A stretch of 25,833 nt of DNA from a virus (IMGVR_UViG_2563366846_000009); one strand, 5' to 3'. Positions 11,508 to 24,837 are shown, numbered from the stretch's first letter. Notes: generated by a model not told the origin, from the letters alone. Program-made: numbers and translations.

Positions 11508-12553
11508 TGAGCAGAAAAAATAAAAAAGTGCGCATGAGTTCACGCATTGATCTCGCTGATGTGCTCAGGAAAGAATCGTCGCTCAGTGCATTCACATTTG
11601 ATGGTCCTTACCGCCTGACCGGGCATGATTTGCTGGACAATATGTACTGTGCTGATAACGGTCGGTGGTATGAAACCCCGGTGGACTGGTACGGTCTGGC
11701 AAGAGCAGCCCGGCAAACGTCCTGGCATCAGTCTGCGCTTTACTTTAAGCGTAATGTATTGCTCGGTTGCTATATTCCGCACCCGCTGCTTTCCCGGCAG
11801 GATTTCTCGGCGCTGGCGCTGGACTGGTTTGTGTTCGGTAACGCATTCCTTGAGCTTCGAAGCAATATGCTCGGCGAACCACTTAAATTACGGCACGCCC
11901 TGGCGAAATACATGCGACGCGGAAGCGATCTTGAATCATGGTGGTATGTGCAGGATGGCAAGGACGCGTTTCAGTTTCGCCCTGGCAAAGTGTGCCACCT
12001 GATGAATCCTGACATTAACCAGGAAATCTACGGCATGCCGGAATATCTCGGCGCATTACTCTCGGCCAGCCTGTCTCATTCGGCGGACATGTTCAGAAAA
12101 CTGTATTACGACAACGGCTCCCACGCCGGGTGCATCATCTACATCGGTGCAGCGCAGGTAAGCCGCGAAAGCATGGACTCCCTGAAGGAAACGCTACAGG
12201 GTGCGCGTGGTGGTGGTGCATTTAAAAACGTGCTCATTCATGCGCCCAACGGGGGCAAAGAGGGGGTGCAAATTTTGCCGTTCCAGCAGATCACCGCAAA
12301 GGATGAGTTCATGAATGTTAAGGCGGCATCCCGTGATGATGTGCTGGCTGCGCACCGCGTTCCGCCGCAACTGATGGGGGCGATGCCGGGTGAAAAAAGT
12401 GCGTTTGGTGATGTGGAGAAGGCCGCGCGGGTTTACGCAATTAACGAGCTGATGCCCGTCATGGAGGCCATGAAGCACATCAATGACTGGCTTGGCGAAG
12501 AGGTGATCCGTTTTAACTCTTATGCACTTCTTGATGAAAAAACAGCCCCGTGA
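11507..12553 (+). CDS. Q: Portal protein Q
   Basis: 348-aa ORF overlapping the P stop by one base, size and position of P2 gpQ. Confidence 0.9.
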   Translation: MSRKNKKVRMSSRIDLADVLRKESSLSAFTFDGPYRLTGHDLLDNMYCADNGRWYETPVDWYGLARAARQTSWHQSALYFKRNVLLGCYIPHPLLSRQDFSALALDWFVFGNAFLELRSNMLGEPLKLRHALAKYMRRGSDLESWWYVQDGKDAFQFRPGKVCHLMNPDINQEIYGMPEYLGALLSASLSHSADMFRKLYYDNGSHAGCIIYIGAAQVSRESMDSLKETLQGARGGGAFKNVLIHAPNGGKEGVQILPFQQITAKDEFMNVKAASRDDVLAAHRVPPQLMGAMPGEKSAFGDVEKAARVYAINELMPVMEAMKHINDWLGEEVIRFNSYALLDEKTAP

Positions 12554-12570
12554 TGGGGCTGTCCTTTTTA
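12540..12570. terminator. Bidirectional intrinsic terminator between convergent Q and the 174-aa gene
   Basis: Hairpin cagccccgtgatggggctg flanked by an A-run upstream and tccttttta downstream, so it reads as stem plus U-tract on both strands. The Q stop codon sits in the loop. Confidence 0.6.
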
Positions 12571-13092
12571 CCAGAGTTGAACCATTTTCTGGGTGCCGTC
12601 AGGCTTGAGATTATCAATTTCAGAGAGAACGTAATATTGAATGGCTTCACAAACGGTGGTGTATGGTGAATTACCTTCTTTAAGTGGCACGATATTATTA
12701 TTAACGCGAACCTGTATTTCATCGTTATACATTGCGATCGAAAGAGGAGTATGTACGAACGCGACTTCGCCAGGTGTGTCGTCAACCACTGTCTCAATGC
12801 TAAAAGTCAGTTTTCGCTCATCATTGCTGCCTCTTGCTTTGGGGGTTGCGGCAGGAATCTGGGATAAAGGCATTCTGCGAAATCCTTCGGCCGTTTCCAG
12901 TCCGCATGAAACGTAATGCTGGCGATTACCGTCGATATCTGTCCACGCTTGTGACGGCAGATCCAGCGAGATTTCATAAGCATCAACAATTCCCTGGGCA
13001 AGGCGTACAAGCGGGGTCAGGTCTTCATTGCGGCGAAAGCTCTCCTTTACCTGCTCTCGTTTTTCTCTTAACTGCTTGTAATTAATGACCAT
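12568..13092 (-). CDS. Hypothetical 174-aa protein, low-GC cargo gene next to the portal
   Basis: ORF with ATG at 13092 preceded by GGAGG at 8-nt spacing; the track extends it to a GTG at 13131. No recognisable motif. Markedly AT-richer than flanking phage genes. Confidence 0.55.
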   Translation of the reverse strand: MVINYKQLREKREQVKESFRRNEDLTPLVRLAQGIVDAYEISLDLPSQAWTDIDGNRQHYVSCGLETAEGFRRMPLSQIPAATPKARGSNDERKLTFSIETVVDDTPGEVAFVHTPLSIAMYNDEIQVRVNNNIVPLKEGNSPYTTVCEAIQYYVLSEIDNLKPDGTQKMVQLW

Positions 13093-13193
13093 AAGACAGC
13101 CTCCATTGATTTCTTTGCTCGTATTTTGCACTTATGAAGTGTGGTCGGCAAGGTGTCGCATCACTGACGCGCTTCGCTTGTCTGCTGCTTCGC

Positions 13194-13216
13194 CGGGGCA
13201 TAAAAAATTTATGCCC
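13194..13216. other. Perfect 10-bp-stem hairpin upstream of the 174-aa gene
   Basis: ggggcataaa aaa tttatgcccc, about 100 bp upstream of the start at 13092. No adjacent T-run on either strand. Confidence 0.4.
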
Positions 13217-13504
13217 CGACTCTCCAGCTCCTGTATCAATCAGATAATTTCACAACGCCTTCCAGCTTATCGCCATCATCGACGGCCAGGCTCTTACGCA
13301 ATCCCACCGCGCTGACTGCATGTTCTCGCCGCCTCAGTGCGATTTTGACGGCCTTATCTGTCACCCCATCAAATCAAAAGCCCTCACGTCTTTTTCACGC
13401 TCAGCGTGAGAAAGACAGCCATTCTGTTGTGTCGCTGCGACATCGTTCAGGGAATGCTATTTACCCCCTGAAACGCGGGCTGTTCCCCCGTCACCTGCGC
13501 GCAG

Positions 13505-13624
13505 AAAAAACGCGTTTTTTTGTGCATGCACGGATCCTTGACGGATCCAGCCGCCATGCGGGCCGGAAGGGTAAAAAGTCGTTCAAAAAAATTGTGCAAA
13601 TTTGTGCACTATTGTGCATTGAAA
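13505..13624. promoter_or_regulatory. Cluster of palindromes and 10-bp-phased TTGTGCA direct repeats in a 520-bp non-coding region
   Basis: Palindrome aaaaaacgcgtttttt (13505..13520), palindrome gtgcatgcac (13522..13531), ggatcc-N4-ggatcc (13532..13547), then TTGTGCA at 13593, 13603 and 13613. Confidence 0.45.
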
Positions 13625-13650
13625 TAAACGCCCTGGAGGAGGGCGTTTTA
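13624..13650 (-). terminator. Intrinsic terminator downstream of the 135-aa gene
   Basis: Stem aacgccct / agggcgtt with loop ggagg directly after the stop at 13652; minus strand continues tttatttc. Confidence 0.55.
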
Positions 13651-13651
13651 C

Positions 13652-14059
13652 TTATCTTTTATAGCCTTGCCCCTTCCTGGCCAGCGCCCTGATGGCCGGG
13701 CGTGCCAACACCATATTTTGGCAATGATGAATTGCCCGGCAAAATTCATCTCTACCCATTGGATGCTCAACTGGCAACGTTAAATACAGGTTCCATGCGT
13801 CGCCTAAAAGTTGGGCTATCTTTTGTTCTTCAGATGTCAGCAAGCAAGCGGTATCCGTAAAATAATCATACTTTTCATGTATGTTATTTAACGGTTTTGT
13901 CTGTAGTGCAGCCTGAGCTATACGGTATGCCTGAAGCATACTGGCGTCGTTGATATCCATTCCGAACGGAATTTCTGATGATTGTGACTCTGCATCTTCA
14001 AGCCTGGCAATTTCTTTACGTAAGAAGTATTTCAACTCTTGTTTCTGTTTTCTGTTCAT
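13652..14059 (-). CDS. Hypothetical 135-aa protein, translationally coupled to the ClpX-zinc-finger gene
   Basis: ATG overlaps the upstream stop (ATGA at 14056..14059). Low GC. No recognisable motif. Confidence 0.6.
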
Positions 14060-14388
14060 GCGTTTTTTTCCTTTTTGTCTGTCACTTCTTTCCTGATAAT
14101 TTCATTGCACAAATCCACGCACTCATTGCAGATGTAAACAGACGGTCCGGCAATCACCTTTGTGACTTCGTACTGGGATTTATTGCAGAAACTGCAATAA
14201 ACCGTCTTCTCGCCTGAAGTCCATGTTTTGCTGGTTTCGCCAGACATCAGTTGTTTGAGGTCTTTTTCACGACGAAGAACTATCTGGCCACATTCAGCTA
14301 TTTTTTGGATGTTGACATTTTCTTCTTTCGCCAGCGCTTCCATCCGCTCAATCAGTCGCTGCGCTTTTTCTCTGTCAATGTGTTGCAT
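14056..14388 (-). CDS. Small protein with C-terminal ClpX-type C4 zinc-binding domain
   Basis: Residues [38 protein letters not shown] are near-identical to the ClpX N-terminal zinc-binding domain, with all four Cys conserved. No AAA+ module follows; the first about 55 aa are unrelated. Confidence 0.85.
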
Positions 14389-14653
14389 TGTGTCCCCCTT
14401 GTTTATGTTCCCGGGTTAAAGTCATCAGGGCGGATGCGCCCTGATGTTGTGTTATTCGGGAAATAACGCCCGGATATTTCCGGCCATCTGACTGGTTATC
14501 TGTGCGGTTGGTACTGGCTGTGACACGGGGCGTTCTGTCCTACAATCAACCTCAGAGCATGGGCTATCCGGGATGGCCTCATACCACGCCAGCGTCGACT
14601 GATAGTTTTGTGCTGCCTCACGCAGTGCCTGGTAATTAATTTCGCTCACTGGT
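14389..14653. repeat. Copy B of a duplicated module (block P 14389..14541 plus block G 14542..14653)
   Basis: Block P is about 93 percent identical to 15601..15756 (3' end of parR, intergenic hairpin, RBS and ATG of the next gene). Block G is about 90 percent identical to 15493..15603 (5' end of the 213-aa gene). Block order is swapped relative to copy A. Confidence 0.75.
14452..14649 (-). CDS. Small chimeric ORF (65 aa from a GTG start): conserved SEINYQALREAAQNYQSTLAWYEAI motif fused to a ParR-like C-terminal tail
   Basis: GTG at 14649 is preceded by GGAGG at 6-nt spacing. The N-terminal 25 aa match the 213-aa protein exactly despite six synonymous DNA changes. The C-terminal 27 aa (ERPVSQPVPTAQITSQMAGNIRALFPE) match the ParR-like protein tail. 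The track calls a longer 98-aa version from 14748. Confidence 0.4.
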   Translation of the reverse strand: MSEINYQALREAAQNYQSTLAWYEAIPDSPCSEVDCRTERPVSQPVPTAQITSQMAGNIRALFPE

Positions 14654-14965
14654 TGCCTCCTGTTTGAATCTGCGCACGGAAAGAATTGGGCATTTTGTAA
14701 TCCCGCCCTCTTTCTCCCATCGGAGGAGCGGGAATCGATATGCTTCAAAATTAAGCCCCGCAGAGCGATCGCTTTGGAAGCATTTCTTACCTACCACCCA
14801 AACGTTTTCGAATCGACGCTCAATGCGAACTGCCGTCCTCCATCCGAATGGCGCGCCTGCATTTACGGCTGCATTTTTTGTCGGAAAAGTTGGCACGGAT
14901 GACACAATTTCATCAACACGCACGCTTAGGTGGCAATCGTCGACATAACTAATTGAAGCTCTCAT
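14636..14965 (-). CDS. Hypothetical 109-aa protein, coupled to the 213-aa gene
   Basis: ATG at 14965 overlaps the 213-aa stop (ATGA). No recognisable motif. Confidence 0.5.
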   Translation of the reverse strand: MRASISYVDDCHLSVRVDEIVSSVPTFPTKNAAVNAGAPFGWRTAVRIERRFENVWVVGKKCFQSDRSAGLNFEAYRFPLLRWEKEGGITKCPILSVRRFKQEATSERN

Positions 14966-15603
14966 GACTGAACTCCTTTGCGAAGCTGCTCCGCACAATG
15001 CAGCAGGGCGTCCGTCGCTTCTTTCACCGTAACGATGTCGCCATCGTCCAGCCCGGCAACCGTCGCGTCCTTAACGAACACCGAGCAAAGGTCATTAAAC
15101 GCCTGCGCTCGTACTTCAGCCAGAAAAGCATTGGTGGCTGGGGTTTCCGGCAATAATCCGCCAACCAGTTCTATTTCTGTTCTGAACCGGGAACTAGACA
15201 CAACGCGATAAGTCAGGTTCGGCATTCTGGCTGCCACTTGCATCTCAAACTCCTCTCCAGATTCCAGCCCGGCTTCATGGGCGTAATCAAGCGGGCTTCT
15301 GACAGGCTCTGAAGCTTCGCCGCCCCAGTAAATCAGGTTCGACTTCAGCCCTGCATTCTCCGCAGCCAGCACCGCAAGATTAGCCTCCAGCTCTGCAATA
15401 CGCTTGTTTTGGGCTTCCCGCTCATCCAGCAGCTCGGCGATAATGTCCATTTCCTGATGACGGATTTGACGCTTAAACGCCGCCACTGCTTCGCTACAAT
15501 CCTGCTCAGCATTTGGGTTATCCGTGATGGCCTCATACCACGCCAGCGTCGATTGATAGTTTTGTGCCGCCTCACGTAATGCCTGATAGTTGATTTCGCT
15601 CAT
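14962..15603 (-). CDS. Hypothetical 213-aa protein with conserved N-terminal motif and central coiled-coil-like region
   Basis: ATG preceded by AAGGAG. Heptad-like stretch REAQNKRIAELEANLAVLAAENAGLKSNL and an acidic C-terminal half. Possible resemblance to Ead/Ea22-like prophage proteins is unverified. Confidence 0.65.
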   Translation of the reverse strand: MSEINYQALREAAQNYQSTLAWYEAITDNPNAEQDCSEAVAAFKRQIRHQEMDIIAELLDEREAQNKRIAELEANLAVLAAENAGLKSNLIYWGGEASEPVRSPLDYAHEAGLESGEEFEMQVAARMPNLTYRVVSSSRFRTEIELVGGLLPETPATNAFLAEVRAQAFNDLCSVFVKDATVAGLDDGDIVTVKEATDALLHCAEQLRKGVQS

Positions 15604-15756
15604 TATGTCGTTCTCCTTGTTTATGCTCTGAGGTGGAGATCAGGACGAACTCGCCCTGACGTTGTGTTATTCAGGAAATAACGCCCGGATATTTTCAGCC
15701 ATCTGACTGGTTATCTGTGCGGTTGGTGCTGGCTGTGACACGGGGCGTTCCGTCCT
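15493..15756. repeat. Copy A of the duplicated module (block G 15493..15603, block P 15601..15756)
   Basis: Counterpart of 14389..14653; includes the imperfect hairpin caggacgaactcgccctg just after the parR stop. Confidence 0.75.
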
Positions 15757-15978
15757 GTTTTGTGTCACTGATAACGCCTCATCGTCAGCCCATGCAGCCA
15801 GTCGGTAAGCCTCTGCCGGATTCATTTTCAGAAGTGCCAGCCCGGCCATAAAAGCCACGCGTTGACCGCTTTTGTGGGCTTCTGGTGTAAGGCTGTCCAG
15901 CCAGGCGCATGCTTCGCCTTCGTTCTTGACGGCGGCGGGCTTCAGATAGAAACTTATCCTCCTGGTTGATGTCGCCAT
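15667..15978 (-). CDS. parR: ParR-like partition adaptor
   Basis: ATG at 15978 sits 4 nt after the parM stop with AAGGAG upstream. The 103-aa product aligns by eye with plasmid R1 ParR (ISFYLKP..., AGLAL..., C-terminal NIRALFPE versus ILRSLFPKE). The track shows a longer ORF from 16113. Confidence 0.7.
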   Translation of the reverse strand: MATSTRRISFYLKPAAVKNEGEACAWLDSLTPEAHKSGQRVAFMAGLALLKMNPAEAYRLAAWADDEALSVTQNRTERPVSQPAPTAQITSQMAENIRALFPE

Positions 15979-15982
15979 TGAT

Positions 15983-16942
15983 TTACTCCTTGTCCATTGC
16001 GTGCAGCCCATTAACCAGAGCAAACTGTGGCACCCCGTCCGCAATGAAAGTCGCATTAACTCCGCAGGCTTCGCGGATAGCGGGTGCCACAATCTCCGCT
16101 CCTCCACCGACAACCATCACCCGCCCGTAACCCGAAAAAACCGCCAGCGCGCGGATCACGCGTTGCTTCAGTGTTTCTTCCTTTTCACGAATAACCGCCA
16201 TCAGGCTGGCGTAATGCGCGTCATTGTGGATGTGCTGGCGCAGCCAGGCTTCATCATGGCGATGTTCGATAATGGTATTGGCGATGTGGTGACTGGTGCG
16301 CATACCGTTAGTGGCCATCACCGACAGTACGGCATCGGCCATCAGAGAAACGCCTACGTGTGGATCGCAAAACACCTGGCTGATACCTGCCAGTTGCCCC
16401 TGAACCTTTGCCACATCCAGCGTGGTTCCGCCCAAATCCACAATCAGCAGGGATTCAAACGGACTCATGTCAGCCAGTGCCTTAAAGCCAGCCGGAATGG
16501 ATTCAGGCATAACCCGCACGTTACGGATAGTGAATGCTTCGCCGTTCTGGTACTTCACCGGGCGCATAACGTTCGCTTTTTTGCGGTTGATGTTGGCCAT
16601 GTCCGGCTGTGCGTTTGTGTCGAAATACTCGCTCAGTGGCAGGGTGACAACCACATCCACCTCCTGTGGCGTGATGCCTGATTTGACCAGCGCGTGATGA
16701 ATGGCAATGACATTCACATCACTGTACTGGTATTGCGTGTCGGTTGTCTGGACAAAGCGATCGCTGACCGGATCAAAACCATAGCGCACGCCATCAAGCA
16801 TGTAGTTCGCGGGCTGCGTGCCACCGAACGGCGCAGACCATTCCGACTTGAAGCTGTTCGGGCTGATAGCGTTGCGGCGTTCGCCGTTCTCAGTCCATGC
16901 CAGCTTGATGTTGGTGGAGCCGTCGTCGATACAAATTTTCAT
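15983..16942 (-). CDS. parM: ParM/StbA actin-like partition ATPase
   Basis: 319-aa protein with extensive colinear similarity to R1 ParM: IDDGSTNIKL, ISPNSFK, YSDVNV, HHAL, MPESIPAG, SLLI(V/I)DLGGTTLD, LSGIS, GVSL, GGGAE, LVNG. Confidence 0.9.
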   Translation of the reverse strand: MKICIDDGSTNIKLAWTENGERRNAISPNSFKSEWSAPFGGTQPANYMLDGVRYGFDPVSDRFVQTTDTQYQYSDVNVIAIHHALVKSGITPQEVDVVVTLPLSEYFDTNAQPDMANINRKKANVMRPVKYQNGEAFTIRNVRVMPESIPAGFKALADMSPFESLLIVDLGGTTLDVAKVQGQLAGISQVFCDPHVGVSLMADAVLSVMATNGMRTSHHIANTIIEHRHDEAWLRQHIHNDAHYASLMAVIREKEETLKQRVIRALAVFSGYGRVMVVGGGAEIVAPAIREACGVNATFIADGVPQFALVNGLHAMDKE

Positions 16943-16971
16943 GTCGCTTTTCCTTATGTTGATTAATTAAT

Positions 16972-17086
16972 CGTTTACGGGATTCTGAAATCCCGCTTTT
17001 GCCTGTTTTGTGCGCGCTTCATATATCGCGGCACGTTTTTTGCTCATTTACGGGATTTGTGAATCCCGTTTTTGTCTGTTTTTTGT
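16972..17086. repeat. Two tandem about 40-bp repeats, each a 7-bp-stem hairpin plus T-tract, between the parM start and the A stop
   Basis: R1 at 16972..17012 (cgggatt ctga aatcccg, then cttttgcctgttttgtg) and R2 at 17044..17086 (cgggatt tgtg aatcccg, then tttttgtctgttttttg). R2 lies inside the last about 22 codons of the A ORF. Confidence 0.6.
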
Positions 17087-19841
17087 TTCCACTGGTCAGG
17101 CCACCCCGCAGCAGGTCTGCTTTGCGGCGGGCGCGTTCAGTGGTTTCACTGATTCTCTGTGTGTGCTCTGCGTCGCGGATGGCGCGCAGCATGTCAGAAA
17201 GCACGGTAACGGGGGTTTTCATGGTGTTCTGGCCCTGCTGAAGTGTGGATGCCAGGCGTGCGGCGGCTTCAGGGGCTGATGCCCCCAGCTGTTCCAGATA
17301 GCTGGCGACCGGGTTATGGCGGATCTCCGTGCTGCTTACGCCGTGATTGCGGCTCAGGCGCTGCCAGAGCTGCGTGATTCGGCTGTCCTGGCGGGTATCC
17401 GGTTTGCGTACAATTTCAAATCCCTGCGGTGCAATGATGCTGCCGTCAACGTACAGACTGCCGCCCCGTAACAGGTGCTGCATCTGCTGTTCACCGATAT
17501 GCAGGCCGAGAGATTCAGCAGACTCCCGCCATTCTTTAGCGAGTAATTCGTGGTTATCAGGCAAAGTCCGCTGCTGTTTGCGGCTCTGTGTCCAGCTCTG
17601 CATTTCATCACTGCTGTTTTTTGCCTGTTTGTCACGAAGCGAACGCATCAGCGTCCGGCGTTCGTGCCGTTTCAGTGAGCGCATCCATTCGTTCACTTCA
17701 ACGCCGTCAGGGAGCTGCGGCCACGGTGCTGACCGTTCTTCCGGCTGTTCTGTCCCGTTGTTGTCCGTTTCCTGTACACGAGGACAGTTATTGCCACGAG
17801 TCCAAGGGGCGGCAGGGCCGCCCTGAAGGTCAAAACCATTTTCGCGGGCGCTGTCTTCCGCTTCCGGTTTACGTCTTACCAGCTTCCAGTTATCCGGATG
17901 CGTGCACACACGGGAGGATTCCCCGATGAGTGGTGACCAGATCCCGTAAATCTGTACGCTCTGTTCGCCGTAATCGTTCAGCTCATCTGCGAGGTCGTAG
18001 GCGGTGCGAATCAGGTAGTCTTTACGTGGAACAAGTACGCCACCCTGTTTTTCAATGTAGGTGGCAAAACACCCGGCATCAGCGGCAGCAAGAACCGCAT
18101 CCATTGCGTCATCCTTCAGCCGTTGCGGGCCTTCCGGGTTGCGTGCCATCTGGCTGGCAAGGCGGCGCAGTTCACGCCACACCTGACGGGAGGGGATGCC
18201 AAAGAACTGGAACTGGCGGACCCGGTGAAGGCGCGCCCAGCCGATGGCGCGCTCCACGCTCTCGGCCATTGATTTTCCGGTTTCGTGGTCAACGCGTGGT
18301 TTGCCCGTTTTCGGGTCGATGCCATCCACGGCGCGGCTGTCCAGGTTCTTTCCGATGTAGGTGGCGATGTAGCTGGTTGGCGTGCCTTTTGAGCCGTCGA
18401 CATACTCCGCCTTAAAGCGCGGAGTTATGTCATTGCCCAGCTCGTGGCGGTCTTCGCGAATGGCAATATCACGGGTGATGTCCACGATGCTGTCGATTTC
18501 TTCAGGATGTGCAAAGACCATCATGTGCCAGTGCACCGTGCCTTCATGATGAGGCTCCGCCGTGCGGATGCCATACCAGCGCAGGCCGTCGCGGTTCAGT
18601 TTTTTGCGGACCGCCGCAAAAAACGTGTTAACCAGGTAATCGCTGGAGTCGCGCATGGTGGCCCCGTTCCATTTGGGGTTCGGATGACCGTTCTCCGTTG
18701 TTGCGTGGTATTTTGACGGGCAGGTGACAGTCAGAAACACCGCTTTGTCACCACGGGCTTCGGCCAGAAGTTCCAGCCCCTTCATGGTGGCCATCATTTC
18801 TGCCTTACGGTGAACCGGGTTACTTACTCCCGCGTAATACACTGTCTCGAGATCAATCGTGAACCCGTCTTCATTTTCCAGCATGAAACTTTTCAGGAAA
18901 TCGCGTGTTTTCTCGCGCTGTGCGCGAAACTCGCTTAACGCGTCCTGGCTCAGATAGGGTGATGTTTTTCTGGAAACCAGACAGGCGGCGCGGAGTTGTT
19001 CTTCCCGCCACTCACAACGTAACAGCCACAGTTTTCGTTTCCACCATTCCGCACAGGTCAGGCGAAGGATTGCGCCCGGCAGCAGCTCCGTGTCCGGTTC
19101 GTTCCTCTGGTCTTTGTCTGTTGTCAGTGCGTCATAATGTGGAGGCATGGCGTGCAGGTGTAACGCCATGCGGGCCAGCATCTGATACGCCTTCAGGGTT
19201 ACATCCATGGTCAGCTCGCCATCGGTCGCGCCAAAGCCATCGCAGAGTTTTTCGAAGGTGCTGCTGAACATCGCCGCCGTCATGGTGGCCAGCGTCTGTA
19301 TCTGGTGCTTGTTGAGCTGCGGCAGGTAAAGCAAATCGTCCAGGCGTTCGCGTCCGGCAAGGGAGCGATAACCCGGTGTCAGCCAGCGGCTGTCGGTGCG
19401 GTCCAGACGTTCGAATATTTTGCGCAGGGTTCCGCGTGCATAGCGTTCCGCCTGCCAGCTCTTTTTGCCTTTCCGGCGATCGGCTTCCTGTTTTTTGCGC
19501 AGGAAGGAGAGGTGGCGAATAAGCGGATCGCGCAGATAGGACGGCAGCAGGCGCAGCGAGGCCATGGCTTCATCCACCGCACCGCGTGCCTGTTTTCTGG
19601 CGTCTCCTGCCAGTGTGATGGTTTTGTCCTGTTTTTCCTGTGCGTCCAGGCTTTTATTAATCAGGTTGCCCAGCGGCGTGGCGGAGAACGCCGCATCAGC
19701 CATTTCCTGGCGGCGCTCGTTCTCTGCCCGGTAGGCATCCAGCCAGGAGGAAAGCGCGGATTCAGGAGCGGGGATCCCCGTTCCTTCACGCCCGACTGCG
19801 TGGCGCGGTTGTTGCCAGTCCCTGATGTACTCTGCCGTCAT
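17019..19841 (-). CDS. A: Replication initiator A (rolling-circle, HUH-type)
   Basis: 940-aa ORF containing EPHHEGTVHWHMMVF and YIATYIGKN, matching conserved P2 gpA motifs. True start may be internal; the ORF is longer than P2 gpA. Confidence 0.85.
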   Translation of the reverse strand: MTAEYIRDWQQPRHAVGREGTGIPAPESALSSWLDAYRAENERRQEMADAAFSATPLGNLINKSLDAQEKQDKTITLAGDARKQARGAVDEAMASLRLLPSYLRDPLIRHLSFLRKKQEADRRKGKKSWQAERYARGTLRKIFERLDRTDSRWLTPGYRSLAGRERLDDLLYLPQLNKHQIQTLATMTAAMFSSTFEKLCDGFGATDGELTMDVTLKAYQMLARMALHLHAMPPHYDALTTDKDQRNEPDTELLPGAILRLTCAEWWKRKLWLLRCEWREEQLRAACLVSRKTSPYLSQDALSEFRAQREKTRDFLKSFMLENEDGFTIDLETVYYAGVSNPVHRKAEMMATMKGLELLAEARGDKAVFLTVTCPSKYHATTENGHPNPKWNGATMRDSSDYLVNTFFAAVRKKLNRDGLRWYGIRTAEPHHEGTVHWHMMVFAHPEEIDSIVDITRDIAIREDRHELGNDITPRFKAEYVDGSKGTPTSYIATYIGKNLDSRAVDGIDPKTGKPRVDHETGKSMAESVERAIGWARLHRVRQFQFFGIPSRQVWRELRRLASQMARNPEGPQRLKDDAMDAVLAAADAGCFATYIEKQGGVLVPRKDYLIRTAYDLADELNDYGEQSVQIYGIWSPLIGESSRVCTHPDNWKLVRRKPEAEDSARENGFDLQGGPAAPWTRGNNCPRVQETDNNGTEQPEERSAPWPQLPDGVEVNEWMRSLKRHERRTLMRSLRDKQAKNSSDEMQSWTQSRKQQRTLPDNHELLAKEWRESAESLGLHIGEQQMQHLLRGGSLYVDGSIIAPQGFEIVRKPDTRQDSRITQLWQRLSRNHGVSSTEIRHNPVASYLEQLGASAPEAAARLASTLQQGQNTMKTPVTVLSDMLRAIRDAEHTQRISETTERARRKADLLRGGLTSGNKKQTKTGFTNPVNEQKTCRDI

Positions 19842-19847
19842 AGTGAT

Positions 19848-20213
19848 TTACTTCGTCATGCCATTCAGGGTGTCGCGGCAGACTGTAGCCAGCCGCTGAA
19901 TTTCCAGCACGATGTCTTCTGTGTCGGCATGGCGATGTGTGATGCGGATGCTGTCGGCAATCACATCGACGATTGCAGAGGATGGGCGCTGGTAAATGCC
20001 AATAACGGACGGGGTACCACCTTCAATGCGGTAAAGCCTGTAATTTCCCTCGTGGCTGTCAATCATGTAGCGACCATCAATAACAATCTTTCCGTCAGCG
20101 AGCTGCGGTACAGGCAGGGATTTCAGGTACATGTCATAACGATCACGCACGCGAGCGGCAAGATCACGTTCTGTGTTGAGCAGGTATTCAAGAAAGTCGT
20201 TGGCGAGAATCAT
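19848..20213 (-). CDS. Hypothetical 121-aa early-operon protein directly upstream of A
   Basis: ORF ending 4 nt before the A start. No recognisable motif. Confidence 0.5.
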   Translation of the reverse strand: MILANDFLEYLLNTERDLAARVRDRYDMYLKSLPVPQLADGKIVIDGRYMIDSHEGNYRLYRIEGGTPSVIGIYQRPSSAIVDVIADSIRITHRHADTEDIVLEIQRLATVCRDTLNGMTK

Positions 20214-20285
20214 TGCGGCAATCCTCTTGTTACAGATGTGCGAAGGCCTCCCGCCGCAAGGTGCAGGAAAGGCCCGGAACAGGAA

Positions 20286-20516
20286 TTAATGGAGTTTGTT
20301 TTGCTGCTGGATGAGATCCTGAAGAGACAGGAGGTCTTCCGCCAGATAGCTGAATACAGCGGCGCAGTAGTCGGCTGAAATAGTGCTGTTGAGTCTGTGC
20401 AATGTGTTGGATTGCATGATAAAGGCGATGTGTGCAGCGCGGGTGAGTCTGCGATCGATTTCAGTCTGGATGTGACGACGTGCAGCGTATGCGCGCTGTT
20501 GTTTGCGGTTTGCCAT
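20286..20516 (-). CDS. Hypothetical 76-aa basic protein
   Basis: ORF with GAGG upstream of the ATG at 20516. Arg/Lys-rich N-terminus. Confidence 0.45.
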   Translation of the reverse strand: MANRKQQRAYAARRHIQTEIDRRLTRAAHIAFIMQSNTLHRLNSTISADYCAAVFSYLAEDLLSLQDLIQQQNKLH

Positions 20517-20692
20517 GGTGTGGCCTCGTACGTAGTGAGTTGTGATAACCCACCGCCGCGAGTTGAGAATCTCGGGGTGGCAGGACGTATGGGGTTCTCA
20601 ACACCGGCTACGCACGAATCCGGCCCGACTGAAGTCGGCCCCATACGCCCCGCCATAATTCTGATGCGAAAAAGACGTGGCGATACGGTACG

Positions 20693-20722
20693 CACAAAAA
20701 AACCGCTGGCGCGGTTGTGCGC
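20693..20722 (-). terminator. Candidate minus-strand intrinsic terminator inside a non-coding region
   Basis: Minus strand reads aaccgc gcca gcggtt followed by tttttttg. Stem is only 6 bp. Confidence 0.35.
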
Positions 20723-20959
20723 GTGCATAGTCAGCAGGTTGAGAATCCCGGCACCCGTTTTATGAGGTGCAGCGGAAATGTAACCTGACTGATTGCGGCA
20801 TGGCAAGCGGTTTTTTTGTGTGTGCATATACAGTTTTACTCCGTTTGATCCGGTTTTTTTTGCCTTCAACCGGAAAAGAAGGGTGTGTTACGCTTGAAGC
20901 ACCCGCTGTTCCGTCAAAAACAAGGCGGGTGCTTTGTTCAACACACGTAAGGAAAATAA

Positions 20960-21046
20960 ATGTCTGATAGCGATAAATTTCATGTACCACGACAACCCGC
21001 ACCCGCTCCGGAAAAGGGGCAGGGTTGGGATGATGAGGAGGACTAG
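20960..21046 (+). CDS. Small 28-aa acidic ORF upstream of the plus-strand membrane-protein gene
   Basis: ATG preceded by taaggaaaataa; translation MSDSDKFHVPRQPAPAPEKGQGWDDEED; stop 6 nt before the next ATG. Too short to tell whether it is coding. Confidence 0.3.
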   Translation: MSDSDKFHVPRQPAPAPEKGQGWDDEED

Positions 21047-21052
21047 ATAGCA

Positions 21053-21538
21053 ATGGGTAATCAGCCATCTGAAAATAATGCTGTGTGGCGACACAAGGTG
21101 ATGTATCGCCTCTGGAATAGTTACTGGCTTGAACATATTGTGGAGGTGTTTAATCGCCGCATGGATACGGTTATCAACGCTGTTATTCTTACGTTGGGAG
21201 CCACGGTGTTTGCTGACAGTAATTTCAGTTGGCTGCTGGGCGGTATAGTGGCTGTACTTAGCGGCTGCAATATCGCCTGGAAATTTGGTCAGCGTGCGGA
21301 GGCGGCGAAAGCACAAGCCCATCGTTACAGTGTGCTGATTTCCGAAAGCGGCAATCTCAGCACGGAAGATGTGCTTAACAGGCTTCTGGAAACAGAGAAG
21401 CAGGACTCCCCAGTGATTGAAGGCATGGATACAGTCGCACGAAACAAGGCGAGTGCATCTATGGGGCTTAAACATCGCGACCAACTTTCCCTCCCTCAAA
21501 AAATCATTGCGTTACTGACTGTCGGTAATCCCGATTAA
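21053..21538 (+). CDS. 161-aa two-transmembrane protein encoded against the early operon (candidate exclusion or abortive-infection effector)
   Basis: RBS gaggagga upstream. Two predicted TM helices (VINAVILTLGATVF and WLLGGIVAVLSGCNIAW) between an aromatic-rich N-terminal helix and a charged C-terminal region. SLATT-like architecture is a guess. Confidence 0.65.
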   Translation: MGNQPSENNAVWRHKVMYRLWNSYWLEHIVEVFNRRMDTVINAVILTLGATVFADSNFSWLLGGIVAVLSGCNIAWKFGQRAEAAKAQAHRYSVLISESGNLSTEDVLNRLLETEKQDSPVIEGMDTVARNKASASMGLKHRDQLSLPQKIIALLTVGNPD

Positions 21539-21577
21539 GTGCAAACGCTTAACTTTTCATTTCTTAAAGCGCGGCTT

Positions 21578-21892
21578 TCAGTCGTGCTTTTCTGTTGCAC
21601 CAAGAAAAAAATCAAAAACGTTATCGATGCGTTGCAGCAGCTCTTGCTGCATTGCTTCCGGCGTTTCTGGTTCACCTGGCGACCCCAGCGTTGCGCAGAA
21701 ATCAGCGATTTCATGATGGAGCATCAGGCGAATGGCAGGAGCCGTGGTTCTGGCGTGCTCCAGCTCATCCAGCAGTGCCAGCACAGCAGACGGCGAGAGC
21801 ATTGCGCGAAATGCCAGTAATTTTTGAGGCGTTGCCATTCGTTGCAGGTCAAATGCCAGTTCGCGTAGCTTCTGGTGGTTGATGGTGCTCAT
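21578..21892 (-). CDS. Hypothetical 104-aa early protein
   Basis: ORF convergent with the plus-strand insert, overlapping the upstream gene by 4 nt. Confidence 0.5.
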   Translation of the reverse strand: MSTINHQKLRELAFDLQRMATPQKLLAFRAMLSPSAVLALLDELEHARTTAPAIRLMLHHEIADFCATLGSPGEPETPEAMQQELLQRIDNVFDFFLGATEKHD

Positions 21893-22155
21893 GTTCTGGC
21901 TTCCTTCAGTAGCTGGTTAAACATGTGAGTAAGTGGATTGCTACACCCGAACGGCATCGGGTTTACGTGGTAAGAAGCCTGGCCTCCAGTTTTGCGAGCG
22001 CGACCACCTGTGCTGCGGTTTGTTCTGATGACTAAGCCGCCGCGCCAAAGTCGGCGTAACTCAGCATTAATAGCTGTGGTTGGGGTGTTCAGTGCTGTGG
22101 CGATTTCTCCGCCGCTACAACCCGGATGTGTAGTGATGTAGTCCAGAATGGTCAT
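21889..22155 (-). CDS. Hypothetical 88-aa early protein, possibly DNA-binding
   Basis: Coupled ORF; Gly/Arg/Thr-rich basic stretch (RTNRSTGGRARKTGGQ). Any fold assignment is a guess. Confidence 0.45.
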   Translation of the reverse strand: MTILDYITTHPGCSGGEIATALNTPTTAINAELRRLWRGGLVIRTNRSTGGRARKTGGQASYHVNPMPFGCSNPLTHMFNQLLKEART

Positions 22156-22355
22156 CTGCGTGACTCCTGTACCTGTCGGATAAGGTTCACCCGCACCACA
22201 TTCGTGGCGCAGAAGTAAGTGCCGTCAGTGAGATAGATGTGATGTGCATCCTGTTCTGAACGGTGTTTGTCGATTGTGGTAATCAGGCGTTCGTCGACTT
22301 CGTATTCACGGCCTCTGGAGGTGAAACGAACGACGGTAAATTGCTTAATTGCCAT
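22152..22355 (-). CDS. Hypothetical 67-aa early protein
   Basis: Coupled ORF (4-nt overlap). Confidence 0.45.
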   Translation of the reverse strand: MAIKQFTVVRFTSRGREYEVDERLITTIDKHRSEQDAHHIYLTDGTYFCATNVVRVNLIRQVQESRR

Positions 22356-22378
22356 TACGCCCCCTTTGTCCAGTAACC

Positions 22379-22795
22379 CTATGCGTTAAATACGGCACGT
22401 TGCGCGTCATCAATGAATACAGCTTGAGAGCGTTCTATCAGGCGGAGATTTGTCAGAAGCTCTGACTCTTTTGTGTGGTAAGGCGTTATCAGGTATTTGC
22501 CGTGCAGTTCGGCAATAATGGTGTATTGCAGCATCATTGCTGAACCAAGAATATAAATGCAGCGTCCAATGCTGGACGGATTCATGGCTGCAACTGTTGA
22601 CTGTGTTTTAAGAGTGTCGATTTCTTTGCCCTGTTCCTCAATAATTTTGGCTGCGTCAGCGGTGATTTTTGCGATGGTCAGTGCGTGAAGTGCTGCCATA
22701 TGTTGGCTACACTTCACGGCATCTTTAGCCATTTCAGCTTCCGCTTCTGATATTTTTTTTAATGTGTCGATAATGCCTTCTTCTTTTGCGTTCAT
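22379..22795 (-). CDS. Hypothetical 138-aa protein, low-GC gene in the early operon
   Basis: Clearly AT-richer than neighbours and preceded by a very AT-rich spacer (22796..22887). No recognisable motif. Confidence 0.55.
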   Translation of the reverse strand: MNAKEEGIIDTLKKISEAEAEMAKDAVKCSQHMAALHALTIAKITADAAKIIEEQGKEIDTLKTQSTVAAMNPSSIGRCIYILGSAMMLQYTIIAELHGKYLITPYHTKESELLTNLRLIERSQAVFIDDAQRAVFNA

Positions 22796-22887
22796 TTTAT
22801 ATCTCCATTATTTACGTGTGCGAATACCTCCGTTAATACGGATGGTTTTCACGTTTTCTTATTTAATTTGATGTTTTATTTGTATCG

Positions 22888-23001
22888 TTATTCATCAGAG
22901 AAAAAACGCTCGATCTTTTTCACTGAATTAATAATTCGCATAATCCCAATGGCGCAGACCACCGAAATAATCAGAACAAGCCATGAGATAAATATACTCA
23001 T
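22888..23001 (-). CDS. 37-aa single-helix membrane peptide, not in the ORF track
   Basis: ATG overlaps the stop of the 80-aa gene (ATGA). Translation MSIFISWLVLIISVVCAIGIMRIINSVKKIERFFSDE. Confidence 0.35.
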   Translation of the reverse strand: MSIFISWLVLIISVVCAIGIMRIINSVKKIERFFSDE

Positions 23002-23240
23002 GCGATATTCCCCAGCTTATACGGTTCAATATGTTCCCCGCATTCTGCGGCACAGATCAGCTCGGAAAGTTCGTTAAGTGCATCCAGATCATCAGCGTAA
23101 AAAGCCACGTCATACAGACTCCGGATTGCCCTGGTCAATGAGTCACGGGCTGCACGTTCAGCATGAGCGCCTGATGCACTTAAGCGAAAATAAAAACGCT
23201 CAAGTGCTTTGTTAATGAGAGTTTTATATTCTTTGCCCAT
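22998..23240 (-). CDS. Hypothetical 80-aa early protein
   Basis: ORF in the early operon. No recognisable motif. Confidence 0.5.
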   Translation of the reverse strand: MGKEYKTLINKALERFYFRLSASGAHAERAARDSLTRAIRSLYDVAFYADDLDALNELSELICAAECGEHIEPYKLGNIA

Positions 23241-23251
23241 CGCAACGCCCT

Positions 23252-23539
23252 TTAATCTGCTTTCTGGATTTCAGCTTCTGAATCCATACAAATAATTTCG
23301 ATATAGGGTTCATCGCCATTAACCTGACGTGCCTTTTCAGCTTCACTGATGATTTCTCGTACGGTCTGGTACGGAAGTTCCACAAGCAGTCGCGTGCCGT
23401 TCAGATAAATGTAAGTGGCTTCTTCGGCTCCGTTTTTACCTGCCGGAGCCACTCCATCAATAGCGGATGCGCGTAACAACAACTCACCGCGAAAATCAAT
23501 AAAACGGATAAATACACCTTGTGCATGGTCTTTAGTCAT
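23252..23539 (-). CDS. Hypothetical 95-aa early protein
   Basis: Internal ATG at 23539 with AGGTG upstream chosen over the TTG start at 23599, which overlaps the upstream gene. Confidence 0.5.
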   Translation of the reverse strand: MTKDHAQGVFIRFIDFRGELLLRASAIDGVAPAGKNGAEEATYIYLNGTRLLVELPYQTVREIISEAEKARQVNGDEPYIEIICMDSEAEIQKAD

Positions 23540-23549
23540 AAAGCACCTG

Positions 23550-23900
23550 TTATAAGTCAGCCTGTTTAATAAAGCTTTGCCCGCGAAGCAGACGATCAAC
23601 CGTGCGTAATGCTTCGTACAATGTGAAATCCTGCCCGAACTGATTGTCGCCGCTGCTTAGTGCAAAAATGCGGTTTCCGGTAAACGGATTACGCGGGCAT
23701 TTGTGGACCACGATTCCAGCTTTTTCAATCAGCCAGGCGTGCTCGCCGATTTGTTTTACGGGGTAGCCATCCGGCGTTGCGTGTGTTTCGCTCAGGCTGT
23801 AGCGAGAGTTGCTACGTGATGCACTGGTAGCGAAACGGTTAGCATGGCGTTCCGCCCCGTTGCGGAAGCGCTGCTGTGAAGAATTGCGCCGTTCCTTCAT
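23550..23900 (-). CDS. Hypothetical 116-aa early protein
   Basis: ORF directly downstream of cox. Basic, Ser/Arg-rich N-terminus. Confidence 0.5.
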   Translation of the reverse strand: MKERRNSSQQRFRNGAERHANRFATSASRSNSRYSLSETHATPDGYPVKQIGEHAWLIEKAGIVVHKCPRNPFTGNRIFALSSGDNQFGQDFTLYEALRTVDRLLRGQSFIKQADL

Positions 23901-23937
23901 ATCAAAATACTCCGCCTAAAATGAATTATGGTTTGAG

Positions 23938-24192
23938 TTATGCTGCTTTACCGCTGATGTTTCTGTTTCGTCTGCCACTTGTTGGCTTAAACAAAAACAG
24001 ACGGTTTTCCCAGTCGTGCCATTCCTGAGGTGCGTTTTCGATGAGGCGATCGCATGCTTCATCCCACGCTTTTCTGTTGATGTAGAGTTCAGCGTTTCCG
24101 CCTGGCTTGAGAGGGTCCGCCATATACACCGCAGGTAGCTTTCCTGCTTTTGCCATGCTTACGATGGCATCAACGGTCTTTCCGATATACAT
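23938..24192 (-). CDS. cox: Cox-like excisionase/early regulator; N-terminal extent uncertain
   Basis: Core (E)GFAMYIGKTVDAIVSMAKAGKLPAVYMADP aligns with the P2 Cox HTH region. ATG at 24192 has GAAGGA upstream. The same frame stays open to 24402, and a 73-aa ORF in another frame (24159..24380) lies upstream. Confidence 0.6.
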   Translation of the reverse strand: MYIGKTVDAIVSMAKAGKLPAVYMADPLKPGGNAELYINRKAWDEACDRLIENAPQEWHDWENRLFLFKPTSGRRNRNISGKAA

Positions 24193-24402
24193 CGCAAATC
24201 CTTCTTTTGACAGAAGATGCGAGGGATTTTCTGAAAGTCGAATTTCTTCACGTTCACGTGCTTTGCGTCCTGTTTTTTGATGCTCCCCCTCTGGCATTTC
24301 TGACAGGTGATCGCATCGTGTTCCGCAAAGTGACTCAGGCGCGTTTTGAGTGCTTTCTTGCATCTGATATCCTCCGCCATTGGTGCTCTTTCTAATTGGC
24401 AC

Positions 24403-24477
24403 TAGTTGGAACCACTTAGAACATTTGTTTGCTGTTCATATGTGGTGTTAATCTACACATATGTAGGAGTTTGTCAA
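24403..24477. promoter_or_regulatory. Divergent early/repressor promoter-operator region between cox and C
   Basis: 75-bp gap between divergent genes containing catATGTGgtgttaatctacacATATGTAgg (ATATGT repeats about two helical turns apart, plus a 7-bp inverted repeat). Confidence 0.5.
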
Positions 24478-24771
24478 ATGGACATTCCTCAAAAAATTCG
24501 CGTCATGCGCAAATCTGAAGATCTCACTCAGCGGGAATTCGCTGATATGATTGGAATTTCTTATTCTGCTCTGACCAGTTATGAGTATGGTCGTAACCTT
24601 CCTGGCCTTGAGATCACTATCAAGCTTTTCAAGCATCCGAGATTTTCTAAATACCGCGACTGGTTTCTGTTTGATGAAGTTGAACCCAAGGCCGGGCAGG
24701 TTGTACCGGCTCTCGCACACATTGGGCAAGACGAAGCGGAATCATCCCGCTCCGGCAAGAAGACTGGTTAA
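24478..24771 (+). CDS. C: Immunity repressor C (P2 type)
   Basis: 97-aa protein (IRVMRKSEDLTQREFADMIGISYSALTSYEYGRNLP...ALAHIGQDEAESSRSGKKTG) collinear with P2 C including the identical C-terminal SGxKTG. AGGAG RBS. The track's longer ORF from 24406 would overlap the operator region. Confidence 0.85.
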   Translation: MDIPQKIRVMRKSEDLTQREFADMIGISYSALTSYEYGRNLPGLEITIKLFKHPRFSKYRDWFLFDEVEPKAGQVVPALAHIGQDEAESSRSGKKTG

Positions 24772-24837
24772 CGGTTCACCAGGCATTTATTTCCCAGAGC
24801 TGTGATCAAGATGATGTTTTCATTGGAGGGCTTCCTT

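Follow-up and report, generated by a model that had tools for sequence, protein, structure and literature searches.

The lytic early operon of a P88-like prophage encodes a 37-aa membrane peptide that has stayed nearly unchanged among its relatives, and downstream of it lies a fixed cargo slot for small accessory genes, occupied here by a cassette encoding a 138-aa protein. The sequence analysed, referred to as the window, is the whole stretch of 25,833 nucleotides (IMGVR_UViG_2563366846_000009). Both open reading frames are real genes, and databases already list the two products as hypothetical proteins. Both belong to general kinds that are known, the one being a small membrane protein of a phage and the other the product of an accessory cassette that occupies a variable slot. 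Of most note are the slot marked by a hairpin and the peptide, which is conserved to an unusual degree. The explanation that covers both genes, an early micro-protein targeting the host membrane followed by a strain-variable accessory binder in a cargo slot, is given slightly better than an even chance of being right. The anatomy, that is the reality of the genes, their coupling, conservation and topology signals, the borders of the cassette, the polymorphism of the slot, the covariation in the hairpin and the predicted folds, is held with high confidence. The functions proposed for the peptide and for the 138-aa protein are tentative, and all molecular targets and phenotypes mentioned below are putative.

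Organization of the Early Operon

The source is a P88-like E. coli prophage (Xuanwuvirus, P2-family, Peduoviridae). A megablast search with positions 21500-24800 gave matches restricted to P88-like phages, with 85-92% identity. The layout of the operon, drawn from annotations of P88-like phages and from family scans (Pfam, PHROG), is as follows:

24802 onward, plus strand: int
Plus strand: gene for the C repressor
24477-24450, minus strand: Pe-like promoter upstream of cox, matching at 10/12 positions
23938-24402, minus strand: cox, the first gene of the early operon
23550-23900, minus strand: DUF4761 gene, following cox in the early operon
Between the DUF4761 and DUF4754 genes, minus strand: 95-aa gene
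22998-23240, minus strand: DUF4754 gene (80 aa), the coupled upstream partner of the 37-aa gene
22888-23001, minus strand: 37-aa micro-protein gene, with an ATGA start/stop overlap at 22998-23001
22815-22887, minus strand: conserved A-rich spacer of the backbone (about 30% GC), 3' of the peptide gene
22829-22842, minus strand: stem-loop UCCGU-AUUA-ACGGA with a 5-bp stem in the operon-sense RNA
22369-22814, minus strand: 446-bp cargo cassette, made up of the Shine-Dalgarno sequence GGAG (22803-22806), the 138-aa coding sequence and a 10-nt tail
22379-22795, minus strand: 138-aa gene (phrog_9338, orphan family; the exact sequence is WP_001519226.1)
22152-22355, minus strand: 67-aa gene (phrog_3459; pN/pS 0.18), the conserved right flank of the slot
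After the 67-aa gene, in this order: MarR-type wHTH gene, Ead/Ea22-like gene, second variable stretch, 121-aa gene
17019-19841, minus strand: replication gene A, the end of the early operon as listed here

From the match to Pe together with this layout, the 37-aa and 138-aa genes belong to the early, lytic operon of a prophage of the P2 family. The 67-aa gene is found in every locus reaching that far, and its ribosome binding site begins directly after the cassette. A search of the literature on P88 early genes, on the DUF families and on the accessions found no published functional work on either the 37-aa or the 138-aa gene.

The 37-aa Membrane Peptide

To describe the variation at this locus, 132 mined loci containing DUF4754, nearly all of them IMG/VR viral contigs, were combined with the window into a set of 133; the samples are mostly E. 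coli isolates, and duplicates were kept in. The ATGA overlap and the 37-aa frame are intact in all 133 loci, even where the identity of DUF4754 is only 76-87%. The sequence-only reading had described the peptide as a single helix coupled to the 80-aa gene, with disruption of its frame in close relatives as what would speak against it. Both parts of that description hold, as does the frame: the ATG of the peptide gene overlaps the TGA of DUF4754 as ATGA, and the encoded peptide contains a single, strongly hydrophobic helix, whose 19-residue Kyte-Doolittle mean reaches 2.81, with a basic tail behind it. It had also been called untracked, which is not correct. The gene is annotated in the P88 RefSeq record as gp07, a 'membrane protein', in other phage records, in PGAP-annotated E. 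coli chromosomes as a hypothetical protein, and in UniProt as a 'Prophage membrane protein'. P88 gp07 (YP_009113050.1) is the same gene, encoding 37 aa with 89% identity, having the same ATGA overlap with DUF4754 and followed by the same spacer. There is no material difference between the two, and the name 'membrane protein' is a prediction; copies of the peptide include WP_000021666.1.

The gene is under purifying, frame-specific selection. Its pN/pS is 0.27-0.28 in frame and 0.9-1.5 in the other frames, and its variable sites number 9, 4, and 15 at the three codon positions. Altogether 22 of the 37 residues are invariant, among them S6, W7, S13, C16, G19, and K28, and only the last five residues are loosely conserved. 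Residues 2-21 make up a strong transmembrane segment, which is followed by R22, K28, K29, R32, and an acidic end. The peptide thus has the features of a small single-pass membrane protein, namely one hydrophobic stretch (2-21) with a Kyte-Doolittle mean of 2.8 and a basic tail.

Some variation is found at the C-terminus. A T6 run at 22901-22906 on the minus strand covers codons 32-34, and changes in its length yield 45-aa variants with an altered C-tail. Such a tail is found in nine of the 133 loci, eight with ...ERFSL(V/M)NN... and one with the related ...ERFFLTNN..., and these variants may equally well be real or sequencing errors. In one further case the peptide is cut at residue 30. A tblastn search found 84-92% identity across all 37 residues in 10 P88-like phage records, and matches over 33/37 residues in two more. 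Phage 503458 (NC_049341.1) is the sole phage record with a truly disrupted peptide frame. Since DUF4754 is frameshifted as well, both within 300 nt (locus L136, 125-450), the broken frame is likely to reflect sequence errors or a decaying prophage.

The peptide can be followed into more distant prophages. In E. albertii it is identical at 33 of 37 residues (89%), while DUF4754 is only 43% identical. Citrobacter sp. TSA-1 (CP053573.1; locus L137, 2275-2418) encodes a diverged version of 47 aa that has kept the ATGA overlap; DUF4754 is there 43% identical, and the 47-aa frame has not been called as a gene. BLASTP gives no alignment between the 37-aa and the 47-aa peptides. Their transmembrane helices can, however, be aligned without gaps, matching on S-W...S...A-I...R, and the ungapped score is 67, compared with 29 ± 5.4 for 5000 segment-preserving shuffles. 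The ATGA overlap is also found in L138, L139, and L140. Two scans of genome contigs identified two loci, one of them on a 226-kb contig labelled Vagococcus sp. WN89Y (NZ_JBQPOM010000071.1, L139), which carries the peptide gene, the hairpin, and a 98% identical DUF4754 gene. The genome of this label is Gram-positive, and the contig is likely to be Escherichia contamination or part of a mislabelled assembly.

With regard to known families, the peptide has no match in NCBIfam, PHROGs, or PADLOC, and Pfam gives only a sub-threshold hit to DUF2975 (E 0.084). Promoter-like sites that could serve the peptide gene alone are not above chance (five found, 4.6 expected), and no Rfam RNA matches the locus as a possible antisense RNA.

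The Cargo Slot and Its Cassettes

The borders of the cassette are seen when the window is aligned with related phages. P88 and P88_4B11 lack exactly positions 22369-22814 (446 bp) as a clean indel, and in the same alignment vB_EcoM-705R2 carries a 136-aa allele at the slot. The cassette begins 19 nt upstream of the start codon of the 138-aa gene, so that its own GGAG is included, and ends 10 nt past the stop codon, directly ahead of the ribosome binding site of the 67-aa gene. The spacer at 22815-22887 (73 nt) is kept in both empty and filled sites with a mean column identity of 88%, and since it is present in phages without the insert it lies outside it. The 133 loci are distributed as follows:

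58/133 loci: slot empty
64/133 loci: a member of the 138/136/122-aa family, in two of these together with a second gene of 109-112 aa
6/133 loci: an unrelated 87-aa helical protein
5/133 loci: an unrelated 105-aa helical protein

Family members examined elsewhere, which include 124-aa and 76-aa variants, a 137-aa protein from Citrobacter and a 149-aa protein from E. albertii, have their starts without exception about 92 nt downstream of the peptide gene. Judged from these comparisons, the site is a fixed cargo slot for small accessory genes, holding 0-2 genes per locus and having four or more states. It coincides with neither gpA-gpQ nor Z/fun, the variable loci known from P2-like phages. The synonymous divergence of the cassette is 0.32, compared with 0.16-0.26 for the flanking genes, which fits a mosaic history where old alleles move by recombination.

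Promoter- and terminator-like sites are not above chance for the cassette, and no terminator-like site follows it on the minus strand. Where a moron would have its own promoter and terminator, the cassette has a ribosome binding site alone, and the next gene is 23 nt away. Without promoter or terminator, the cassette is therefore expected to be expressed from Pe. PADLOC gives only chance-level matches for the neighbouring genes and the alternative cargo. Profile comparisons found no homology between the 138-aa family and the 87-aa cargo, the 105-aa cargo or the Ead/Ea22-like neighbour, and the idea of one N-terminal module common to all cargo was dropped for this reason. An integron-like attC reading of the cassette was also rejected, as there are no repeats at its 3' end. 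In two loci (L141 and L143, 3390-3671 in both) the slot holds a 124-aa variant of the family, a ParE_like gene (PF24732, 41 bits) lies 14 nt beyond it, and after this comes a gene encoding 108-118 aa.

The sequence-only reading had arrived at an insert by another route, namely that the 138-aa gene and its AT-rich upstream spacer stand out in composition and so would constitute a second small insert. The stretch 22379-23001 does lie within the lowest 1.3% in GC of all stretches of the same size, and the 138-aa gene has 44.4% GC against a mean of 53.2% for the window (7th percentile). However, the gene is in this respect like those upstream. Its upstream neighbours have 44-47% (the 95-aa gene 44.4%, the DUF4754 gene 46.5%), the C repressor gene has 44.5% and int 42.7%, while the genes downstream are GC-richer with 50-53%. 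A windowed GC calculation thus puts the 138-aa gene inside the range of its neighbours on the upstream side, and because this was the reading's own yardstick the compositional argument fails. The GC trough consists of the 92-nt spacer at 22796-22887 (30.4%) and the 37-aa gene (35.1%). The spacer is thus AT-rich as had been claimed, but 73 of its 92 bases (22815-22887) are backbone and not part of any insert. What remains of the proposed insert is the 138-aa gene itself, which is absent from P88 and P88_4B11, and this conclusion rests on presence and absence among relatives and not on GC.

The Stem-Loop in the Spacer

The 5-bp stem with its 4-nt loop at 22829-22842 is kept in every locus, is also present in the Citrobacter locus, and marks the left edge of the cargo slot. 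In the alignment 98.6% of the cells are paired, compared with 35-59% when the partner strand is slid, and two of the five stem pairs display compensatory double changes between C:G and U:A. Two single-sided stem variants give G.U wobbles in the minus-strand RNA only, and a plus-strand RNA would have A.C mismatches in their place. The operon-sense sequence after the hairpin is GGUAUUCGCACACG, a T-run being found on the opposite strand alone, and Rfam has no match for the stem-loop. Since a U-tract is lacking in the operon sense and Rfam gives no match, the stem-loop does not qualify as a canonical terminator, and the data can only suggest an element for mRNA processing, stability or pausing. 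A mini-ORF through the hairpin (GTG AAA ACC ...) was rejected, as about 40% of the loci read ATG-TAA and are without a start, and as the pairing covaries.

Read in the plus-strand direction, the hairpin precedes TGGTTTTCACGTTTTCTTATTT and scores as terminator-like, which would make it the intrinsic terminator of an antisense transcript and not an element of the early mRNA. This is considered very unlikely. The single-sided variants pair, as G.U, in the minus-strand RNA only, no convincing plus-strand promoter or gene lies upstream, and the terminator-like sites in the region are not above chance (six found, 4.6 expected).

The 138-aa Protein

The 138-aa protein matches phrog_9338 over its full length (E 4.4e-80), its residues 1-138 aligning with positions 1-138 of the profile. 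This family is unannotated, and its domain architecture and its restriction to the slot have been worked out here. No matches were found among Pfam, NCBIfam, PADLOC or PDB sequence profiles. The family is tiny, with 86 clusters when grouped at 90% identity, and its named members come from Escherichia, Shigella, Salmonella, and Citrobacter. A profile search of 1.8 billion representative proteins returned only 25 relatives, none of them annotated, and a homology search with a wider profile found relatives confined to Escherichia and Citrobacter. From these searches, the protein represents an orphan family limited to Escherichia and close relatives such as Citrobacter. The gene is clearly coding, and the dN/dS of the family is 0.44 overall and has its maximum of 0.8 near residues 26-40; as it never exceeds 1, an arms-race signature is not demonstrated.

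The AF2 model (pLDDT 80) displays helices at residues 3-28 and 32-68, a low-confidence linker, and a β-barrel at 79-127. Foldseek returned weak, generic matches to small barrels and coiled coils (best PDB E 0.011, best BFVD E 1e-3), the nearest barrel types being, weakly, SH3, Tudor, KOW, and chromo-barrel. The fold assignment is therefore only approximate. The protein is predicted to be soluble and to consist of a helical hairpin and an SH3-like small barrel. Two E. albertii alleles (P0048 and P0053) have 2-4 tandem units of seven residues (DTGLNLS / DTRLNLP) in the linker, which confirms it as a flexible joint. Shorter variants of the family contain the hairpin with a trimmed barrel, or the hairpin alone. 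We infer that the 138-aa protein is a soluble, strain-variable accessory binder.

Proposed Roles of the Two Genes

Transcription from Pe after derepression would lead to synthesis of DUF4754 and, through the ATGA coupling, of the 37-aa peptide. The peptide would insert in the inner membrane as a single-pass protein with the N-terminus out and the basic C-tail in, and soon after derepression a helix face formed by S6, W7, S13, C16, A17, G19, and R22 would bind a conserved component of the host inner membrane. We infer such a helix-helix binding because this face is far better conserved than the neighbouring proteins. The most likely effect would be a block of division, of envelope synthesis or of entry by other phages, while non-specific membrane damage by the peptide is less likely. 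The small genes behind it may be swapped at a fixed point by recombination between the conserved flanks, with the stem-loop acting in the mRNA directly upstream of the exchange point. The cassette, read from Pe, would then provide the 138-aa protein as an accessory binder for host takeover or counter-defence. The extreme conservation of the peptide and its position in the early operon fit a host-directed role, and the suggestion of the sequence-only reading, an inhibitor or toxin aimed at the host, stays plausible. A more far-reaching version, rather unlikely as a whole, is that the peptide represents a new inhibitor that acts with high specificity on a conserved inner-membrane machine of E. 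coli, for instance on a component of the divisome or of the lipid II pathway, and that the slot serves the early operon as a store, not described before, of proteins for counter-defence or host takeover that share a scaffold of helical hairpin and small barrel.

The peptide might instead act on the membrane itself, as a depolarising toxin comparable to type I toxins or holins and without any specific protein target. Its build, one short and very hydrophobic helix carrying a charged tail, is the general shape of toxins of the Fst, TisB, and Hok type, and its gene belongs to a lytic operon under repression in the lysogen. However, the gene is coupled within the operon and has neither its own promoter nor an antisense RNA, and the peptide matches no toxin family in Pfam, NCBIfam, or PADLOC. 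Further, the conservation is residue-specific, with S, W, S, C, A, G, and R being invariant or aligned even in Citrobacter, and depolarisation early, before replication, would hurt the phage. A membrane-damaging toxin is thus judged unlikely. Somewhat less so is the reading of the peptide as a membrane anchor or obligate partner of DUF4754, made in a fixed proportion and having no target of its own. The DUF4754 protein matches Pfam PF15946 over its full length (181.7 bits), its gene has a pN/pS of 0.11, and its AF2 model is all-helical (pLDDT 88.8) with no PDB fold match (best E 1.7). In favour of this reading, it is predicted to be a small soluble protein without a membrane segment, and the two genes are coupled and co-occur in 133/133 loci as well as in the diverged prophages of Citrobacter and E. 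albertii; taken alone, so tight a coupling fits an anchor or partner just as well as a host-directed peptide. In the latter, however, DUF4754 has fallen to 43% identity and the peptide has remained at 89%, which is unusual for tightly co-evolving partners. A host membrane component as the binding partner is the favoured reading for the peptide.

As to the 138-aa cassette, its accessory presence/absence pattern in a prophage could point to a moron or lysogenic-conversion gene with a defence function, expressed from the resident prophage, and P2-like phages are known for their defence hotspots (PMC9122126). The gene is, however, part of the Pe operon and shares its orientation, with 23 nt to the next gene. 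A ribosome binding site of its own is present, but promoter- and terminator-like sites are not above chance; the protein has no PADLOC match, and the P2 hotspots described are gpA-gpQ and Z/fun, not this slot. Expression as a moron is accordingly regarded as very unlikely. The ParE_like gene situated 14 nt from the 124-aa member in L141 and L143 (PF24732, 41 bits) might indicate that the family is an antitoxin-like or regulatory partner of a toxin, and that it is an orphan here after loss of this toxin. But most loci hold a family member alone or with unrelated genes of 109-112 aa, there is no similarity to known antitoxin families, and a cargo slot by construction brings unrelated genes together, making this alternative highly improbable. 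An accessory binder expressed from Pe remains the preferred interpretation of the cassette.

Relation to Known Systems

Small membrane proteins that interfere with cell division have been described from several hosts. SidA of Caulobacter is a small bitopic division inhibitor which is stress-encoded, made early or transiently, and binds membrane proteins of the divisome or of peptidoglycan synthesis. PhiNM1 Gp11 (PMC11237401) and SP01 gp56 (bioRxiv 10.1101/2020.02.06.938217) are small bitopic phage membrane proteins, made early or transiently, that block division, and both act by binding membrane proteins of the divisome or of peptidoglycan synthesis. The 37-aa peptide is like these three proteins in size and topology, and its position in the early operon also fits. 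There is no sequence similarity and the hosts are different, making this an analogy of mechanism and not a question of membership.

The related Peduoviridae phage 186 encodes the division inhibitor fil and the host replication inhibitor dhr at the same relative place in its early operon. They are found directly after the switch genes and are followed by the terminator tR1, ahead of the non-essential genes and gene A, a layout like the one seen here. Fil (75 aa) and Dhr (66 aa) are, however, not homologous to the peptide and have no N-terminal transmembrane helix, and tR1 of phage 186 has a U-tract where the stem-loop described above has none. The type I toxins (Hok, TisB, Fst, Ldr, and Ibs) are short, hydrophobic single-helix peptides, as is the 37-aa peptide, but they have their own promoter and a cis- or trans-encoded antisense RNA, while the peptide gene is internal to an operon, coupled, and without antisense RNA.

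P2-like phages carry variable loci for defence genes at two fixed sites, gpA-gpQ and Z/fun (PMC9122126; Rousset et al. 2022). The slot resembles these in that cargo is exchanged at a fixed site between conserved flanks. It differs by being located inside the early operon, by having much smaller cargo (proteins of 76-149 aa) with no PADLOC matches, and by the expression of this cargo presumably being lytic and not lysogenic.

Prevalence and Significance

The locus is found in 1,366 of 5,426 complete E. coli genomes, about a quarter, including O157:H7 strains, so that an activity of the peptide against the host, if it has one, would be widespread. A query including the cassette is matched over at least 80% of its length by 824 of these genomes, among them that of O157:H7 strain 86-24. 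With its sequence nearly unchanged where neighbouring proteins are down to 43% identity, the peptide is a good candidate for a specific binder of an essential membrane protein, and binders of this type are useful as probes or antibacterial leads. The slot, which lies apart from the variable loci so far described in P2-like phages, constitutes a compact and readily testable natural library of small early proteins. Diverged peptide genes are still being missed by gene callers, as illustrated by Citrobacter sp. TSA-1.

Other Features of the Window

The second variable stretch of the early operon holds an RNA-controlled antirepressor module of the P1/P4 type. Rfam identifies a C4 antisense RNA (75.5 bits) and an isrK Hfq-binding RNA (58.4 bits) at 20573-20770 on the minus strand, and these are followed by a 76-aa ORF (20286-20516, minus strand) with a weak match, below the cut-off, to the Derepression family (22.3 bits). 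Because of the two RNAs, the 219-aa 'ORF' at 20210-20869 is not regarded as a protein. A divergent 161-aa gene (phrog_6315) at 21053-21538 on the plus strand has a weak match to SLATT_4 (E 0.021) and is membrane-protein-like. The full stretch 20214-21560 is found in only 10 of the 5,426 complete E. coli genomes.

The region 12450-16950, between the portal/terminase genes and gene A, corresponds to the known gpA-gpQ hotspot. None of its proteins has a PADLOC match, and it contains a low-GC stretch of 39-45% at 12450-14400. The hotspot encodes two Ead/Ea22-like proteins, a ClpX-type zinc-finger protein (14056-14388), and a ParM-type actin-like protein (15983-16942) with StbA_N and ParM_N domains.
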